The notes under the pieces are model-generated. The model did no database searches, was not told the DNA's origin, and worked only from the letters and a program-made list of their open reading frames with translations. A DNA stretch of 49,900 nucleotides from Weeksellaceae bacterium. Lineage in GTDB: Bacteria > Bacteroidota > Bacteroidia > Flavobacteriales > Weeksellaceae. The number at the start of each line of letters is the position of its first letter. Within the stretch, counting starts at the first letter, position 1. Where the stretch lies: positions 1 through 49,900 of the forward strand of contig JAKOOG010000235.1 of the NCBI GenBank assembly GCA_022701545.1, written 5' to 3'. Below are positions 13,480 through 23,493 of this stretch, one piece after another. The position numbers and the translations under genes are program-made.

Positions 13480-13539
13480 ATTTTGTAACAACAATACGTA
13501 ATTTTATAACACAGATACCACAGATAATTTTTAACTTTG
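13480..13539 (+). promoter_or_regulatory. Putative AraC direct-repeat site plus -7 element for the copper operon
   Basis: ATTTTGTAACA (13480-13490) and ATTTTATAACA (13501-13511) at 21-bp spacing; TAACTTTG at 13532-13539. Confidence 0.6.
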
Positions 13540-13544
13540 TTCCC

Positions 13545-13922
13545 GTGAAAAAGATTCTTGCCATATTGTTCTCTGTTTTCTACTTCGGATTTTCTTCCGG
13601 AGCGGTATTCAGTGTCCATTATTGCATGAATGAATTGGCGTCCGTAAGCCGTAAAGGGGAAGACGTTTGCAGCAAATGCGGGGTTAAAGCAAAAAAAGAC
13701 TGCTGCAAAACTGAGATCAAAGTTGTAAAAGTTGGCGATTCCCAGAAATCGGATTTCCTTAAAATTGATTTAATGAAAGAACTCCGGGAAGTTTTCCGAC
13801 CCGAAATTTTTGTAACCGACCGGTCTTTTTCCAACTCAAAATTCACTCAGATCCGGATCAATGCACCGCCTGAAATCCGCCCGGTCCCTATTTTTATTAC
13901 CCATTGTCATTTTAGGATTTAG
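13545..13922 (+). CDS. HYC_CC_PP family exported Cys-rich protein (putative metal-sensing leader peptide)
   Basis: Signal peptide, HYC, CSKC, DCC, INAPP and C-terminal HCHFRI; first gene of a heavy-metal operon. Confidence 0.8.
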   Translation: MKKILAILFSVFYFGFSSGAVFSVHYCMNELASVSRKGEDVCSKCGVKAKKDCCKTEIKVVKVGDSQKSDFLKIDLMKELREVFRPEIFVTDRSFSNSKFTQIRINAPPEIRPVPIFITHCHFRI

Positions 13923-14156
13923 AATCGGTTAGTCGTCTTGATGATCATCAATTAAATTTTCTCCGGGAGAAACAAAAGATTTTTTGTGACCATGCTTTAC
14001 CCGACCTGCCAGGTTTACCAGATCAGCCAGGTTTTTTAAACAGCATCATCCGTGAAAATCAGTTCGATCCGTTGAATATCATCACAACGACACGCTCTGT
14101 CGCATTATGCGATTTTAAACCGTTATTAAAAAATAATCCTAAAATTTAAAACAATG
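13902..14156 (+). promoter_or_regulatory. Long-range mRNA stem sequestering the initiation region and AUG of the DUF3347 gene
   Basis: CATTGT(13902-07)/ACAATG(14151-56); ATTTTAGGATT(13909-19)/AATCCTAAAAT(14135-45); CGGTT(13926-30)/AACCG(14118-22). Confidence 0.65.
14003..14033. repeat. Degenerate REP-like element
   Basis: GACCTGCCAGGTTT-ACCA-GATCAGCCAGGTTT, same layout as the palindrome at 17754-17787. Confidence 0.4.
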
Positions 14157-14627
14157 AAAAAATATATCATCACTGCCGTATTCTCTTTATTTTCAATTAT
14201 TTCTATCTCTGCACAGTCTAAAAAAGATGCTCAGGTTTCCAGACTTTACCAGAATTACATCGCTATAAAATCAGCTTTGGCTTCCGATGATGCCGATAAA
14301 ACTTCAAAAGCGGCAACTGAATTCATTAAAACCGCTTCTGCCATCGATTACAAAAAAGTTTCGGAAGGAAACCTGGATATACTCAGAAAAGATGCGACTG
14401 CCATTTCAGAAGCCCGGAATATCAGCACGCAACGTGAGACCTTTACAAACCTTTCAGATAATATGATTGCTTTGGCTAAAGAATATAAACTTTCAGAAAA
14501 CCCGGTCTATGTTCAGTACTGCCCGATGGCAGACAGCAGCTGGCTGAGCGACGAATCGAAGATTGCCAATCCATATTACGGAAAGTCCATGCTTACCTGC
14601 GGAAATGTAAAGTCTACCCTTAAATAA
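14154..14627 (+). CDS. DUF3347 periplasmic metal-associated protein
   Basis: Signal peptide; YIAIKSAL, YCPMA..SWLS and NPYYGKSMLTCG motifs. Confidence 0.88.
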   Translation: MKKYIITAVFSLFSIISISAQSKKDAQVSRLYQNYIAIKSALASDDADKTSKAATEFIKTASAIDYKKVSEGNLDILRKDATAISEARNISTQRETFTNLSDNMIALAKEYKLSENPVYVQYCPMADSSWLSDESKIANPYYGKSMLTCGNVKSTLK

Positions 14628-14653: not shown

Positions 14654-14777
14654 GTTGTAAAGACTGTGGAAAAGGACTTTATCGTTTGTCGGTAGAAATC
14701 TTTGCTGACACCTATTTTTTCACTTTAAAATTAAAGTGTAAGAAGTCAAGTAAATTTGTTTATCCAGACTTTACAAC
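14654..14777. other. Multi-stem intergenic structure (RNA element or MITE remnant)
   Basis: Outer inverted repeat GTTGTAAAGACTG/CAGACTTTACAAC enclosing GACTT/AAGTC and two hairpins (14687-14710, 14721-14738). Confidence 0.45.
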
Positions 14778-14952: not shown

Positions 14953-17712
14953 ATGAAAAAATTCATCTTATTTCTGTTGTTCTTATTTTCTGTTTTCAGT
15001 TTTTCCCAAACTGCAAAAACCTATTTTACCTGTCCGATGCATCCGGAAGTGGTGTCATCTAAACCGGGAGACTGCCCGAAATGCGGCATGACCCTAGTGA
15101 AAAAGACGGCGGCAGTTAAATCCAAAACGGTGATAAAATCACTGGCCAAACCGGCTCCGAAAACAGAAATCAAAACAACGGAAATTAAAAAGAAACCGGC
15201 AACGAAGAAAGAAGCCTATAGCAAAAAGGCTGCTGGTCCAAAAGATAAAATCCGGAAGGAAAAATCATCCGTACCGACAGCTCAACATCAGGTTCACGTA
15301 CGGCATGAGAAAAAGTATACCTGCCCGATGCATCCGGAAGTGATTTCCGGCAAACCCGGAAAATGCCCCAGATGCGGAATGGATTTAGTAGAAACCGAAA
15401 ATCAGACTGAGCCGGATCCTGAAACTGAAACCCGTAATTCTGTGCTAAAAAAGAATACGTCGAATGGAAAAATAAGCTTTGGCGGCAGAACGGTTCGCTA
15501 TGATTTATATGTAAAAGATACCATCGTTAATTTTACCGGAAAAAACCGTCGGGCCATTGCGGTAAACGGAAAGCTTCAGGCTCCGACTCTATATTTTACG
15601 GAAGGCGATACCGCGGAAATTTACCTTCATAATGGACTGAAGGAAAATACGGGTTTCCACTGGCACGGAGTTATCTTGCCTAATGAATTCGACGGTGTGC
15701 CTTATCTGACGACTAAGCCGGTGAAACCTGGAGAAACGCACCGCTATAAATTCAGGGTGTCACAGAATGGAACCTATTGGTACCATTCCCATGAAAGCCT
15801 GCAGGAGCAGATCGGCATGAATGGGATACTGGTTTTCAGGAAAAGAGAAGGAAATCCAGGTACCGGCTATTCCCGTGAAATTCCTGTATTGCTGGGAGAA
15901 TGGACGAATGAAAATCCGGGACAGATCGCCCGGCGGCTTCACATGGCCAATACCGATTGGTATGCCATTAAAAAAAATGCCGTACAGAGTTATGGCGAAG
16001 CCCTGAAATCCGGAAATTTCAGAACCAAGCTGCTGAACGAATGGAAGAGGATGGAGGCAATGGATGTAAGCGATGTGTATTACGACCGGTTTCTTATCAA
16101 CGGGCAGCCGAGTTCAGTTTATGCAGATGTAAAAGCAGGTGATAAAGTTCGGTTGAGGGTAGCCAATGGCGGTTCTTCTACGTATTTCTGGCTGAATTTC
16201 GGAGGCGGAAAGATAAAGGTAGTAGCCAATGACGGCAATGATGTGGTTCCCGTAGAGGTCGACCGTCTGATCGTCGGGGTTTCTGAAACCTATGATATTG
16301 AAGTCACCATTCCGGAAAATAAAAGCTTTGAATTTCGCGCGACTTCTGAAGACCGGATCGGGCATGCGTCGCTTTGGCTCGGATCGGGAGAGAAAGTGGA
16401 AGCTCCGGATCTGCCCCGCCTCATGCTTTTTGAAGGGATGAAAATGATGAACGGCATGATGAGCATCAGCGGAAACATGAAGCCGATGAATATGACGATG
16501 GGCAACCAGATGATGGATATGAATGAAGTCATGTATCCCGAACTTTCCGGAACCCAGCGGAAAATGACCATGAAACATATGAACGAAATGATGGGCGTCA
16601 AAGAAGAGGATACCGAAAATGAAAATCATTCCAATCATTCGGCAATGAACCTACCCGCAGAAAAAGCTATCAAAAGATTGTCCTACAACATGCTGAAATC
16701 TCCTGAGAAAACCATTCTGCCTTCTGAGAATGTACGGGAACTTAAATTTACGCTGGAAGGGAATATGAACCACTATTTATGGACGCTTGATAATAAAACC
16801 GTTACGGAAACGGATAAAATTCTGGTCAGGAAAGGGGAAATCCTGCGGATCACGATGTACAACAATTCCATGATGCGCCACCCGATGCACCTTCACGGCC
16901 ATGATTTCCGCCTGATCAATGCAAAAGGAGAATATTCGCCATTGAAAAATGTAGTGGATATTATGCCGATGGAAACCGATACGATCGAGTTTGCGGCCAA
17001 TCAGGACGGCGACTGGTTCTTCCACTGCCATATTCTGTACCACATGATGGCCGGAATGGGAAGGGTGTTCAGCTACGAAAATTCTGCACCGAATCCTCAG
17101 TTACCGGATAAAAAGCTGGCGTGGAGAAACTTTATGAAAGACAACCGGATGATCAGTTCCATGGCCATGCTGGATGTCAATTCCAATAAGCTCCATGCAG
17201 AAACCATGACGATGTTCGGACCAAGATGGACCAACCTGAACGAATTTCACTCCAACTGGGATTTCAATCATTTTGACGGAAATTTCAAAGTGGGAAGATT
17301 CCTGGGAAAATTCCAGTGGGCGCTGCCTTATGCGGGATTTAGGATTCAGAACAACCATGAGATCATGGAACGGCAGATGGCGAAAGCGATGGGCATGGAT
17401 TTTCATGGAAGGAGAACATGGTTCGGACAGCAGAAGGCTTCGAAAACAAAAGGCGCATTGACTGTCGGTATGCAATACCTGTTGCCAATGCTGATCACCG
17501 CTGATGCCAGCGTCGATCAGAATGGGAAAGTCCTGCTGGAGTTTCAAAGGGAGGATATTCCGATTTCAAGAAGATTAAGAGGAAATTTCACCCTGAATTC
17601 CGACGGAGAATTTTCAACGGGTTTGCGGTACATCCTCCAAAAATGGCTTTCGGTATCCGGAAATTACGATAACGAAATGGGCTGGGGTGCCGGAGTTACT
17701 TTGATGTATTGA
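14953..17712 (+). CDS. Multicopper oxidase (CopA/PcoA family) with two N-terminal heavy-metal-binding repeats and a C-terminal beta-barrel-like domain
   Basis: HWHG, WYHSH, HPMHLHGH and HCHILYHMMAGM copper motifs; two TCPMHP..CPxCGMxL repeats; Met-rich insert. Confidence 0.92.
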   Translation: MKKFILFLLFLFSVFSFSQTAKTYFTCPMHPEVVSSKPGDCPKCGMTLVKKTAAVKSKTVIKSLAKPAPKTEIKTTEIKKKPATKKEAYSKKAAGPKDKIRKEKSSVPTAQHQVHVRHEKKYTCPMHPEVISGKPGKCPRCGMDLVETENQTEPDPETETRNSVLKKNTSNGKISFGGRTVRYDLYVKDTIVNFTGKNRRAIAVNGKLQAPTLYFTEGDTAEIYLHNGLKENTGFHWHGVILPNEFDGVPYLTTKPVKPGETHRYKFRVSQNGTYWYHSHESLQEQIGMNGILVFRKREGNPGTGYSREIPVLLGEWTNENPGQIARRLHMANTDWYAIKKNAVQSYGEALKSGNFRTKLLNEWKRMEAMDVSDVYYDRFLINGQPSSVYADVKAGDKVRLRVANGGSSTYFWLNFGGGKIKVVANDGNDVVPVEVDRLIVGVSETYDIEVTIPENKSFEFRATSEDRIGHASLWLGSGEKVEAPDLPRLMLFEGMKMMNGMMSISGNMKPMNMTMGNQMMDMNEVMYPELSGTQRKMTMKHMNEMMGVKEEDTENENHSNHSAMNLPAEKAIKRLSYNMLKSPEKTILPSENVRELKFTLEGNMNHYLWTLDNKTVTETDKILVRKGEILRITMYNNSMMRHPMHLHGHDFRLINAKGEYSPLKNVVDIMPMETDTIEFAANQDGDWFFHCHILYHMMAGMGRVFSYENSAPNPQLPDKKLAWRNFMKDNRMISSMAMLDVNSNKLHAETMTMFGPRWTNLNEFHSNWDFNHFDGNFKVGRFLGKFQWALPYAGFRIQNNHEIMERQMAKAMGMDFHGRRTWFGQQKASKTKGALTVGMQYLLPMLITADASVDQNGKVLLEFQREDIPISRRLRGNFTLNSDGEFSTGLRYILQKWLSVSGNYDNEMGWGAGVTLMY

Positions 17713-19789: not shown

Positions 19790-22645
19790 TTATTTATCGG
19801 ATTCAATATTTAAATTCACTGAATTCAGCCTTAACGAATTTAAGATGACCGATAAAGAACTGAAGCTCATTGCCGCCGCCGCGATCATCGGTGATAAAAG
19901 AATTCCGAAAAACGGGTACAATAATCCTGCCGCAACGGGCACGCCCAGCACGTTGTATATAAAAGCGAAGAACAGGTTTTCCTTTATGTTTTTCAGCAGT
20001 TTCTCACTAAGCAGCTTGGCTTTGGCTACACCGAGGATATCTCCTTTCAGCAAAGTGATTTCTGCGCTTTCGATGGCGGCATCCGTCCCGGTTCCCATAG
20101 CAATTCCGATATGAGCCTGGGCGAGGGCAGGGGCATCGTTAATGCCGTCACCGGTCATTGCGACAACTTTTCCCTGCTGCTGTAGTTTTTTTACTTCATT
20201 TAATTTATCTTCCGGCAGGCAGTTGGCCTTGAAATGCCTGATTCCCAATGCATCGGCTACAGCTTTGGCGGTATGCTCGTTATCACCTGTCATCATGATT
20301 ACATCAACGCCTTCGGCCATCAGCTGCTGAACCGCTCTTTTTGAACTTTCTTTAATCTTATCGGTAAAGCTGATGAAACCGAGGACTTCCTGATCCTGGG
20401 CAACATAGGAAATCGTATGGGCTTCAGACTGCACTTCTACGGCTTTCTGTCTCAGGCTTTCCGGAATCTGAATCCGGTGTGAATCCAGAAGGCTCTCATT
20501 TCCAAGATAGATCTTTTTTCCGTTGCTGCTTCCTTTAAGGCCTTTTCCGGAAACATTTTCAAAGCCCTGTACTTTTTCAGCTGAAATATGCCTGTCTTTT
20601 GCTTTTTTAATGACAGCGCCAGACAAAGGATGTTCAGAATTCTGATTCAGGGAGTAAGCCAGCTTTAAGATTTGATCCTGATCTTGGTTCACGGCTTCAA
20701 TATGTTCCACCGATGGTTTTCCTTCCGTTAATGTTCCTGTTTTATCGGTAATCAGGACATTTACTTTATTCATCTGTTCAAGGGCTTCGGCATTTTTAAT
20801 TAAAATCCCGTTTTTAGCGCCTTTCCCGATTCCCACCATCAAGGACATTGGGGTAGCCAGACCCAGTGCGCAGGGACAGGCAACAATTAAAACGGCAACG
20901 GCATTGACGAAAGCGAATAAGGTTTTCTGGCCTTCCGGACCGAAAAGCTGCCATAGAATAAAGGTAAGAACAGCAATTCCGATTACCGTCGGAACAAAGA
21001 CCTTTGAAACTTTATCCGTTAATTTCTGAATCGGGGCTTTGCTGCGGCTGGCTTCATTCACCATTTTAATAATGTGCGACAAAAGGGTTTCATCACCCAC
21101 TTTTTCCGCTTTCATAACGAAGGTCTGGTTTCCGTTGAGGGTTCCGGATGTTACCTGATCGTTAACCTTTTTTTCAACAGGAACCGGCTCACCTGTAATC
21201 ATGCTTTCATCGACCAATGAGTTTCCTTCCGTTATTTTTCCGTCCACCGGAATTTTCTCACCGGGTTTTACCCGCAGGAAGTCGCCCTTTTTCACTTGCG
21301 AAAGCAGAACTTTTTTCTCCTGCCCGTCGATGATAAGGTGGGCTTCGTCAGGGGAGAGGTTCATGAGTTCACGAATGGCATTTCCGGTTTTTTTGTGAGC
21401 GGCCGCTTCCATCAGCTGTCCCAGGATCACCAGGGTCAAGATGACGCAGACTGCTTCAAAGTACAGGGGGATTTCATGGTTATGTCCCCGGATTGCATGG
21501 GGAATCATGTCCGGAAAAATCAAAGCGGTAATGCTGAAAAGGAATGCTGCCGCAACCCCAAGCACGATGAGGCTGAACATATTCAGGTTGCGGGTTTTAA
21601 ATGAAACCCAGCCTCTTTTCATCAGGAACCATCCGGAATAAAAAATAACGGGCAACGAAAGGATGAGCTCGATAAAGCCCTGCGTCTGGTGTGAAAACGG
21701 AAAATCAATCAGCATTCCGCCCATCGAAAGGATGAATACCGGAATGGTAAAAGCCAGTGAAATCATCAGCTTTTTTTTCAGGATGTTGTAGGTTTCGTCG
21801 TGGTCATCCTCTTTTTTATCCGGCATCCTGATCAGATCCATCCCGCAGATGGGGCAGTCGCCGGGTTCATCCCGGATGATTTCAGGATGCATCGGGCAGG
21901 TGTACTGGGCTGCTTTCTTTTCCGGGTACTTTACGAGATCCATTCCGCAAACCGGACAGCCGACGTTGCTGTCATACACTTTGTCTCCTTCACAGTACAT
22001 CGGGCAATAGTATTTTCCGGCCATTTCATCGGTAACTTTCGGCGTTTCCTGATAAGGTTGATGGTGATGGTGAGAATGCTGATGCATAGGTGTTCCGGAA
22101 CTGCCGGTAAGTTCTTCCGTAATTTCTTCCAAATGCATGTGGCAGACCGGGCAATCGCCTTTTTCATGATAAATTTTATCTTTTTCGCAGAACATGGGAC
22201 AATAATAGTCTCCGATATGATCTTTAAAATTCTCGGGAAGGCTGGTTTTGGAATAAGCGGGTTTAAAATTCGGGTCTTTTGCGTGTTTTTCCTCAATTGG
22301 GACCAGATACATATTGCAAACCGGACATCTCTTTCCCTGCTGGAAATAAACCTTATCGCCTTCACATTCCATCGGACAGTAATACACGGAAGACGGTGAA
22401 ATGCGGTCCTGGGGTTTTACGAATTCTTTTTGAGGATGATCAGAGTCCTGAAGCCTGTAATTCCCGGCTTCTTCAAGTCTCTTATTTAAGGTCGTGATGT
22501 CTATTTCCTGATCGGAAGTAATGGTTGCGGTATGGGTTTCCAGATTAACATCGGCTTTGATGCCTTTGATGCCGTTCAGCTTATCAGAAATCTTTTTCTG
22601 GCAGCCCGAGCAGGTCATTCCGGTAATGGTATAGTTCTTTTGCAT
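19790..22645 (-). CDS. copA: Cu(I)-translocating P1B-type ATPase with an HMA domain and four YxCPM metal-binding repeats
   Basis: GMTCSGC, TGEP, CPC, DKTGT, SEHP, GDGIND, YN and MxxSS motifs; start set at MQKNY (22645) because the longer start overlaps the promoter. Confidence 0.93.
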
Positions 22646-22664: not shown

Positions 22665-22723
22665 CAAATTTCCGACAAGCGGCCGGAAGCCTGTTATAAA
22701 TTTAAGGATAATATGTATAGAAT
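22665..22723 (-). promoter_or_regulatory. copA promoter with putative AraC direct repeats
   Basis: Minus strand: ATTCTATACAT (22713-23) and AATTTATAACA (22692-702) at 21-bp spacing, then a GAAATTTG -7-like element (22665-72). Confidence 0.55.
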
Positions 22724-22748: not shown

Positions 22749-22935
22749 AATAGGGTTTGGGAGTTTGAAGGTTATAGATTGTTAGTGTGGGAGAGGGGGT
22801 AGAGATGCTAATCCGTTAACGATGATCTTTCTCATGTAAAGGATGACGTTCGGTAACTTAATTTTTGATTTAAAAAATACTTTCTCGCCTTGAAAATCTC
22901 TCAAATTCTCTAACTCTCATACCCTCCAATATTCA
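22749..22935. repeat. Inverted arrays of degenerate 8-mers
   Basis: Left arm TAGGGTTT GGGAGTTT GAAGGTTA TAGATTGT; right arm TCAAATTC TCTAACTC TCATACCC TCCAATAT. Confidence 0.55.
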
Positions 22936-23493
22936 AACCTGATCCAGCGGTTTCCGGTTGTGGATTTTCAGCTTTTTAAATTCGGTAGGGGTGAAGCCGG
23001 TAATGTTCCGGAATTGGGAGGATAAATGCTGCACGCTTTTGTAGCCTAATTTTCCGGCAATTTCCGTCAGCGTAAATTCATTATACAATAGCAGTTCTTT
23101 TACCTTTTCGATTTTCTGAAGGATAAAAAACTGTTCGAGCGTGATATTTTCATTCTGTGAAAAAGCTTTGGAGAGTGCGCTGTAGTCTTTATGAAATGCA
23201 GAAGCTAAAAATTCGGACAACAGGAAATCTTCCGCAATATCAAGTCCGCTGATTTCGGCAATGATTAAGTTTTTGATTCTTTCGGTCTGCTGGCGGGTGG
23301 AATCTTTTATTCTTTCAAAGCCTGTTTCTTCAAGCTGTCTTTCCAAAAGTTCCAGTTGTTTTTCAGAAAGTTCAGTTCCGGCTTCCGCTTCGCCCAGGAT
23401 CACGGATTTCAACGGAATGCCGGCTTCATTAAAAATGGACTGCACGGCAGAAATGCATCTGCCGCAAACCATATTTTTGATAAAAATTTTCAT
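22933..23493 (-). CDS. AraC-family regulator with N-terminal HMA-like metal-binding domain
   Basis: KNMVCGRC at the N-terminus; C-terminal LTEIAGKLGYKSVQHLSSQFRNITGFTPTEF. Confidence 0.9.
   Translation of the reverse strand: MKIFIKNMVCGRCISAVQSIFNEAGIPLKSVILGEAEAGTELSEKQLELLERQLEETGFERIKDSTRQQTERIKNLIIAEISGLDIAEDFLLSEFLASAFHKDYSALSKAFSQNENITLEQFFILQKIEKVKELLLYNEFTLTEIAGKLGYKSVQHLSSQFRNITGFTPTEFKKLKIHNRKPLDQV

Follow-up and report, generated by a model that had tools for sequence, protein, structure and literature searches.

The 3' end of a small leader ORF is complementary to the start of the next gene, both in the 49,900-nt stretch of Weeksellaceae DNA analysed here (the window) and in many relatives, and that start is therefore predicted to be hidden until the leader has been translated. 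The resulting clamp is likely a copper-responsive switch for metal-handling genes. The leader (positions 13545 to 13922, forward strand) encodes 125 amino acids from a GTG start and belongs to the HYC_CC_PP family, scoring 40.3 bits (E 4.1e-10) against NCBIfam NF047658, above the curated cut-off of 28 bits. An N-terminal helix is followed by the HYC motif (13617-13625), the CC motif (13701-13706), a long linker, the PP of an NAPP motif (13866-13871) and the tail HCHFRI-stop. A Pfam search with this leader and three others of the family gave no match, DUF2946 (PF11162) included. Matches to NF047658 were obtained in 113 of 151 genomes from the same genus; in the order the count was 54 of 151, in the phylum 59 of 201, and among 14 control genomes zero. 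Homologous leaders are present in Flavobacterium genomes, which belong to the same order as the window's genome, and a homologous locus (L297) is found in Flavobacterium johnsoniae.

The proposed target of the clamp is the DUF3347 gene (14154-14627, forward strand; PF11827, 59.2 bits), which begins 231 nt after the leader's stop and encodes an exported protein with Cys/Met motifs. Downstream of it, profile matches place a gene for an HMBD-containing multicopper oxidase (14953-17712, forward strand), which may be co-transcribed with the leader. A heavy-metal P-type ATPase gene and an AraC gene lie on the opposite strand, 5-9 kb from the leader. The terminator pattern listing gives a terminator-like hairpin at 14687-14710, 3' of the DUF3347 gene, and an inverted repeat follows at approximately 14722-14739 (whole stretch 14687-14760). 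A -7-like element at 14751-14758, about 190 nt 5' of the oxidase gene, may provide that gene with its own promoter. Within the signal region of the leader a short hairpin was noticed by eye near 13585-13602, and several codons (13563-13605) are nearly fixed among orthologues (0.94-1.00).

The initial annotation had described a stem of four nested blocks between the leader's end and the DUF3347 start, and its eight complementary stretches were all found in place, complementary and nested. Folding of 13850-14170 with RNAfold gave -68.7 kcal/mol (z -3.31), a value equalled by 0 of 100 shuffles, and pair probabilities were computed for sequences of five sizes, from 291 to 901 nt. The first three blocks fold, with probabilities of 0.5-1.0 overall and mostly above 0.85. 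Block 1, here P1, pairs the His-Cys codons (13902-13907) with 14151-14156 (p 0.89-0.96), and block 2, P2, pairs the His-Phe-Arg-Ile codons (13909-13919) with 14135-14145 (p 0.51-1.00). Block 3 pairs 13926-13930 with 14118-14122 (p 0.82-0.98) in this genome only, and was discarded as a conserved helix since the orthologues do not keep it. Block 4 is absent from the fold, because 13932-13936 pairs with 14087-14091 (p 0.99-1.00) and 14110-14113 lies inside a local hairpin at 14099-14113. The stem does cover the A-rich initiation region, as had been claimed: 14135-14156 supplies the 3' arms of P2 and P1, and A-13 to A-10, A-3 and the AUG all fall within the predicted helix.

Taken singly, the duplex in the window is only moderately beyond chance. 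In its own genome, 20 of 220 initiation regions pair equally well with the U-rich arm, while 0 of 220 stop regions pair equally well with the DUF3347 initiation region; against non-cognate partners from the leader family, p is 0.063. The strength of the case comes from the homologues. The arm is tandemly repeated at 13911-13927 (the F-R-I codons, then I-stop-plus-3), which offers a possible second register, and the start region matches that register in some orthologues with TTC for Phe (L012, L156). Rfam matches between 13300 and 15000 numbered five, each of them weak (E 0.3-3) and well short of the gathering score.

Inside the stem are two further helices that covary freely. The 5' arm of P3 occupies 13932-13945 on the forward strand; its core is the pairing of 13932-13936 with 14087-14091, and an extension, 13939-13945 with about 14078-14084, is local to this genome. 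Four of the five core pairs have changed on both sides, with C-G replaced by U-A in 21 of 98 orthologue rows. P4 is the RNAfold hairpin at 14099-14113 (forward strand) that takes up the bases of block 4, and five of its six pairs show changes on both sides. A role of P4 as an intrinsic terminator is not supported: it is not in the terminator listing, and at least five T in the next 8 nt were seen in only 15 of the 86 orthologues in which it was located. No intrinsic-terminator pattern was found in the spacer between the leader and the DUF3347 gene. The P3 loop holds an insertion of about 130 nt (13946-14077, limits approximate, forward strand), the intergenic length being 231 nt here and 100-103 nt in the nearest short relatives. 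The insertion had been taken for a REP-like remnant in the loop that spares the stem. Its position and the sparing of the stem are borne out, but its identity as a REP is not confirmed. A high-copy REP finds no support, as only a single piece of 15-26 nt recurs in the genome (87% complete), weakly and in 2-5 copies. A common origin of the insertion in the window and three sister genomes is likely. In all five long-spacer orthologues the extra sequence lies inside the clamp, and the Flavobacterium-type loci L069 and L071 (spacers 229-266 nt) carry different inserts within an inner helix, as the window does.

Among orthologues (111 loci, giving 103 distinct spacers) the stem is real and conserved. 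In single folds the helix over the AUG has p above 0.5 in 101 of the 103, with one compensatory change. Counts for the named structure refer to the 98 orthologues with short spacers, five long-spacer rows (the window included) having been left out of alignment A1. The structure is 95.4% paired in these, compared to 30-47% for slid registers, and its covariation score was reached by 0 of 500 shuffles, a test that kinship inflates. RNAalifold on A1 recovered P1, P3 and P4 and missed P2, which was counted instead within the named structure, a count that depends on our choice of pairs. P1 is paired in 99.3% of cells and shows no covariation among the 98. P2 is 95.6% paired, with a two-sided change from A-U to G-C at the third position of the Arg codon, a single event in a clade of seven genomes that includes the window. 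The covariation expected between the leader's 3' end and the start region thus amounts to this one event in P2 and none in P1. The last seven leader codons are nearly fixed in the genus (major-codon fraction 0.92-1.00, against 0.42-0.96 just upstream), and the Cys codon of the tail is TGT in 102 of 103 orthologues, compared to fractions of 0.59-0.73 for five other Cys codons. These nearly fixed codons agree with the suggestion that the C-terminal FRI is constrained at the RNA level, which is one part of the matter. The F-[LR]-I tail is constrained as a peptide too, since its residues are invariant, with free synonymous change, in 75 Flavobacterium loci whose arm begins at the stop.

The wider family was represented by 102 diverse loci and the window, with downstream starts hand-picked from protein N-termini. 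Dropped before the counts were duplicates (L042, L063 and L090), loci with no downstream gene (L075 and L079), loci with an unclear start (L144, L214 and L226) and partial loci (L027 and L030); L116-L119 entered the set from the pairing-profile step of the folding. Cognate stop-start pairing reached p<=0.05 in 55 of 103 (median z -2.0), compared to 18 of 220 ordinary same-strand pairs from the own genome (median z +0.12), the latter drawn from 610 such pairs with gene calls made in this analysis. Some family loci are close kin, and the family counts are therefore not independent events. Pairing with the next start peaks between -9 and +12 of the stop (up to 0.57) and is close to zero from -75 to -33; on the other side it peaks at -13 to -9 of the next gene's start. 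Six or more bases of the stop region pair with the next initiation region in 90 of 111 leaders and in 8 of 120 ordinary gene pairs. Across the phylum the arms of the clamp are unrelated sequences in different loci. Bacteroidota ribosomes ignore Shine-Dalgarno sites. According to a passage of PMC6847099, A residues at -3, -6, -12 and -13 together with low structure promote initiation in F. johnsoniae.

With one representative per cluster scanned for identity, the partners of 107 leaders fall into ten clusters: TonB/HMA (52), CusA (30), MbnP (9), OEP (5), HMBD (4), HMA (2), DUF3347 (2) and three singletons. A second leader type in the window's genus (L028, L053 and L205-L207) mostly lacks PP and ends in H-C-V-Y-R-I. 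The gene after it encodes an outer-membrane efflux protein, and the clamp is retained at 5 of 5 loci.

The effect of ribosome position was modelled by forcing a 31-nt footprint to be unpaired and computing the cost of opening the start, in 70 loci of which 61 have PP. For the window the cost is 6.9 kcal/mol with the RNA free, 7.5 with a ribosome at PP and 3.0 with one at the stop, and it falls from codon -10 onward, ie with the P site near that codon. Opening by at least 2 kcal/mol was obtained at the stop in 48 of 61 loci, at PP in 0 of 61 and in 3 of 60 controls. The arm begins 31 nt downstream of the PP codons in the window, close to the 30 nt first estimated, and the distance is at least 16 nt in 78 of 78 loci. 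Two earlier proposals are supported by the model, namely that the left arm lies outside the footprint of a PP-stalled ribosome and that a ribosome running on to the stop melts the stem, the start being opened from the last ten or so codons or from the stop itself.

An AlphaFold2 model of the leader (pLDDT 74, pTM 0.43) consists of a hydrophobic, signal-like helix (residues 2-18), a small sheet that bears Cys, a linker that is long and unstructured, and a short helix at the tail. The tail is thus probably not a strand of the folded domain, although the pTM of this model is only 0.43. Across leaders that share no more than about 16-35% identity with that of the window, the distance from CC to PP is 56 residues (sd 2.6, n=91; 53-59 at 5-95%) and from CC to the end 73 residues (sd 3.0, n=106). 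In 18 long-tailed leaders CC-to-PP stays near 55-56 while CC-to-end grows to 77; Flavobacterium-type leaders keep CC-to-end at 73 with PP shifted to -14. Regression of the spacings gave an intermediate slope of 0.53-0.66, where 1 would be anchored to PP and 0 to the stop. PP is present in 92 of 107 leaders, often after a small residue, and takes the form N-[AG]-P-P in the window's genus; R-[AG]-P-P was found in 0 of the 107 family leaders. It stands at -18/-17 in the window leader, and 55 of the 96 leaders with PP have it at a distance of 17-18 residues from their end; the 17 residues after it are conserved as peptide. The 15 leaders without PP keep the tail, with CC-to-end at 67-77, and 12 of them keep the stem. 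Among the 107 leaders the tail has F/Y at -3 in 95, L/R/Y at -2 in 100 and I at -1 in 66, with varied codons, followed by TGA in 42, TAG in 40 and TAA in 25; two different tail types occur in the family. Of the grounds for preferring a co-translational sensor to plain coupling, the tight CC-to-PP and CC-to-end spacing carries the most weight.

Transcription of the leader appears to be under separate control. A Bacteroidetes -7 promoter element (13532-13539, forward strand) lies 5 nt before the leader GTG, and 102 of 103 orthologues have a gap of 4-10 nt. Of the 66 family loci with the element, 55 show a gap of no more than 9 nt, compared to 4 of 64 controls. The comparison is partly circular, as the start assigned to each family leader was the nearest one in frame downstream of the element; 38 of 104 family loci are without the element. 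Since a passage of PMC6847099 puts the element 4-5 nt from the transcription start, a leaderless or almost leaderless mRNA is predicted for the leader. GTG or TTG starts are used by 26 of 46 leaders with a gap of up to 7 nt. Upstream of the element is a tandem direct repeat, 21 nt apart (13480-13489 and 13501-13510, forward strand), a probable AraC-type activator site. AraC proteins bind such direct repeats. Both boxes are present in 102 of 102 orthologues; in the own genome they accompany 3 of 4997 -7-like sites, two of which are the leader promoter and the copA promoter, the third being near position 21462 of G000 C293. The copA repeat (22693-22723, reverse strand) matches that of the leader and adjoins an AraC gene with an N-terminal CxxC (22933-23493), next to the copA promoter. 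A -7-like element at 22665-22672 makes the ATG at 22645 (reverse strand), rather than the TTG at 22678, the probable start of copA. Of 63 family promoters, only 7 have the strict proximal box. In the window's genus an AraC-type activator thus probably adds transcriptional control over the switch, and the boxes of the leader and of copA, beside the AraC gene, mark a candidate Bacteroidota copper regulon.

In the mechanism we favour, the leader's last codons and stop would pair with the A-rich start and AUG of the next gene and leave that gene untranslated. The nascent leader would stall at N-A-P-P with the clamp still shut; binding of metal, probably copper, would induce folding and release the stall, and the released ribosome, on reaching the last ten or so codons, would open the clamp for fresh initiation on the freed start. 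We put this best single model, in which stall, metal and release are inferred, at a probability of roughly 0.45. Its observed basis is the complementarity, its conservation, the position of the arm on the stop and the fixed CC-PP-end spacing; the fold is computed, as is the result that the start opens for a ribosome near the stop and stays closed for one at PP. The metal-handling nature of the downstream genes (CusA, TonB/HMA, MbnP, OEP) counts in its favour. The clamp with its coupling step alone, ie dependence of the next gene's translation on that of the leader, is highly probable, and gating by metal through the nascent chain in some form is probable. Counting against the evidence for the clamp are P1 without covariation, the single event in P2, close kin and hand-picked starts, and against metal gating by the nascent chain, that the AraC-type boxes could supply all the copper control. 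Release from PP in particular must contend with 17 conserved residues that would not yet be made during a PP stall, with the count of 0 of 107 for R-[AG]-P-P, with the stem in 12 of 15 PP-less leaders and with the intermediate slope.

The same clamp could instead be worked by a regulated arrest at the stop codon or immediately ahead of it, within the conserved tail, with PP as an upstream tunnel contact; metal binding would prolong the dwell, as in CutF, and the parked ribosome would hold the clamp open. Tail residues fixed relative to the stop with varied codons, and invariant in the 75 Flavobacterium loci, would be expected from this, as would the retention of tail, stem and CC-to-end length in PP-less leaders and the 73 residues kept by Flavobacterium-type leaders with PP at -14. 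Opening begins with the P site near codon -10, and arrest at termination has precedents in TnaC and PepNL (described in part of PMC11890864). We regard this arrangement as doubtful, since the tail may be followed by any of the three stop codons and comes in two different types, CC-to-PP is held near 56 in long-tailed and degenerate-tailed leaders, and a nonpolar C-terminus may be a mere degradation signal, as a passage of PMC9426467 argues for CruR.

Plain translational coupling would dispense with sensing by the nascent chain altogether. The clamp would make synthesis of the next gene depend on that of a small, exported protein that binds metal, and copper would act on transcription, through the CxxC-bearing AraC. 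The tandem boxes, in 102 of 102 orthologues and common to the copA promoter beside the AraC gene, point this way, as does the occurrence of the same clamp before exporters and TonB-type receptors alike; no arrest motif is needed, and R-[AG]-P-P is absent. We consider it unlikely, because it leaves unexplained the tight spacings across a poorly conserved, unstructured linker, the PP in 92 of 107 leaders and the placing of one leader family before at least eight unrelated partner families, and because the strict proximal box is so infrequent in family promoters. It is very improbable that the main output is transcription or RNA stability, with ribosome position setting Rho-dependent or intrinsic termination in the spacer and the stem secondary. 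CruR is a precedent for this (in passages of PMC9426467), and the conserved, covarying P3 and P4 have no assigned role, but the spacer has no intrinsic terminator pattern, P4 has no U-run in most orthologues, and the conserved pairing hits exactly the A-rich initiation determinants.

The main reading, release from PP, resembles two copper systems, here cited from portions of the papers. In CutF-cutO of Rhodobacter capsulatus (PMC9973294, bioRxiv 10.1101/2025.02.05.636593) a small exported Cys leader with a proline motif likewise precedes copper-detoxifying genes, including a multicopper oxidase, and an RNA stem covers the next initiation site, which here is predicted and conserved. Of the CutF-like features given in those portions of PMC9973294, the window leader has the size (125 aa; <150), a same-strand neighbour at 231 nt (<1000), HYC, CxxC and CC motifs and the signal-like helix in the predicted model (2-18); PP within the last 15 residues is seen in the Flavobacterium type (-14) and not in the window (-18/-17). 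CruR-bfrG of Bordetella pertussis (PMC9426467, PMC12992588) is likewise the first gene of a copper operon with a long intergenic region. Its CXXC-RAPP spacing is conserved and functional, a 5-residue insertion impairing regulation, and copper relieves the arrest (PMC9426467), the polarity of our preferred model; loss of the RAPP Arg abolishes arrest (PMC12992588). Stalls in both systems reach the stop region, as the PPP of CutF is at residues 114-116 of 118 (bioRxiv 10.1101/2025.02.05.636593) and the RAPP of CruR at 139-142 of 145 (PMC9426467). The stalled ribosome of CutF melts the stem over a Shine-Dalgarno site, whereas the PP here, 17-18 codons from the end, is out of reach, and the two sides of the helix, the stop and an A-rich start with no Shine-Dalgarno, are 100-330 nt apart. 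CruR acts by Rho-dependent termination, with an importer being shut off by copper. The leaders described here carry N-[AG]-P-P instead, are predicted to act on translation initiation and would switch genes on in response to metal. The clamp locus thus resembles CutF/CruR control but differs in having no DUF2946 match, no RAPP, a PP away from the end and a stall that does not reach the stem.

Other leaders are related in principle. The long-range opening of a distant start recalls the MS2 coat-replicase system, in which an upstream coding stretch pairs with a distant downstream start until a ribosome passes and opens the pairing. In the present case the centre of the arm is a stop codon, that of a dedicated leader with metal motifs whose mRNA is probably leaderless. 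In SecM/VemP/MifM, TnaC and PepNL, in the portions of the literature consulted, the nascent chain also controls a downstream start through the position of the ribosome on an mRNA stem, though what they sense is secretion or small molecules, and their arrest motifs have been demonstrated, arrest here being postulated. Searches for HYC_CC_PP, DUF8199 and the clamp returned no paper on this system, only CutF/CruR/RAPP or unrelated papers. PMC9973294 counts many Bacteroidota proteins as CutF-like, and such a stem is not described in its available passages; its supplement text gave no match, and its full protein list may include these leaders. According to a portion of PMC12992588, Bacteroidota lack RAPP/RGPP leaders in front of copper genes. 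On balance, we lean slightly towards HYC_CC_PP genes being, throughout the phylum Bacteroidota, leaderless arrest leaders that sense metal and whose arrest motif is not RAPP. Such a class would invert CutF/CruR logic through a long-range stop-to-start clamp on a start without Shine-Dalgarno, control efflux pumps, chaperones, oxidases and TonB receptors, and in the window's genus stand under a second, AraC-type copper control. The clamp gives these proteins a testable function and predicts a new arrest motif. The locus further suggests how Bacteroidota may fill the RAPP gap, with another leader family and a clamp on A-rich determinants.
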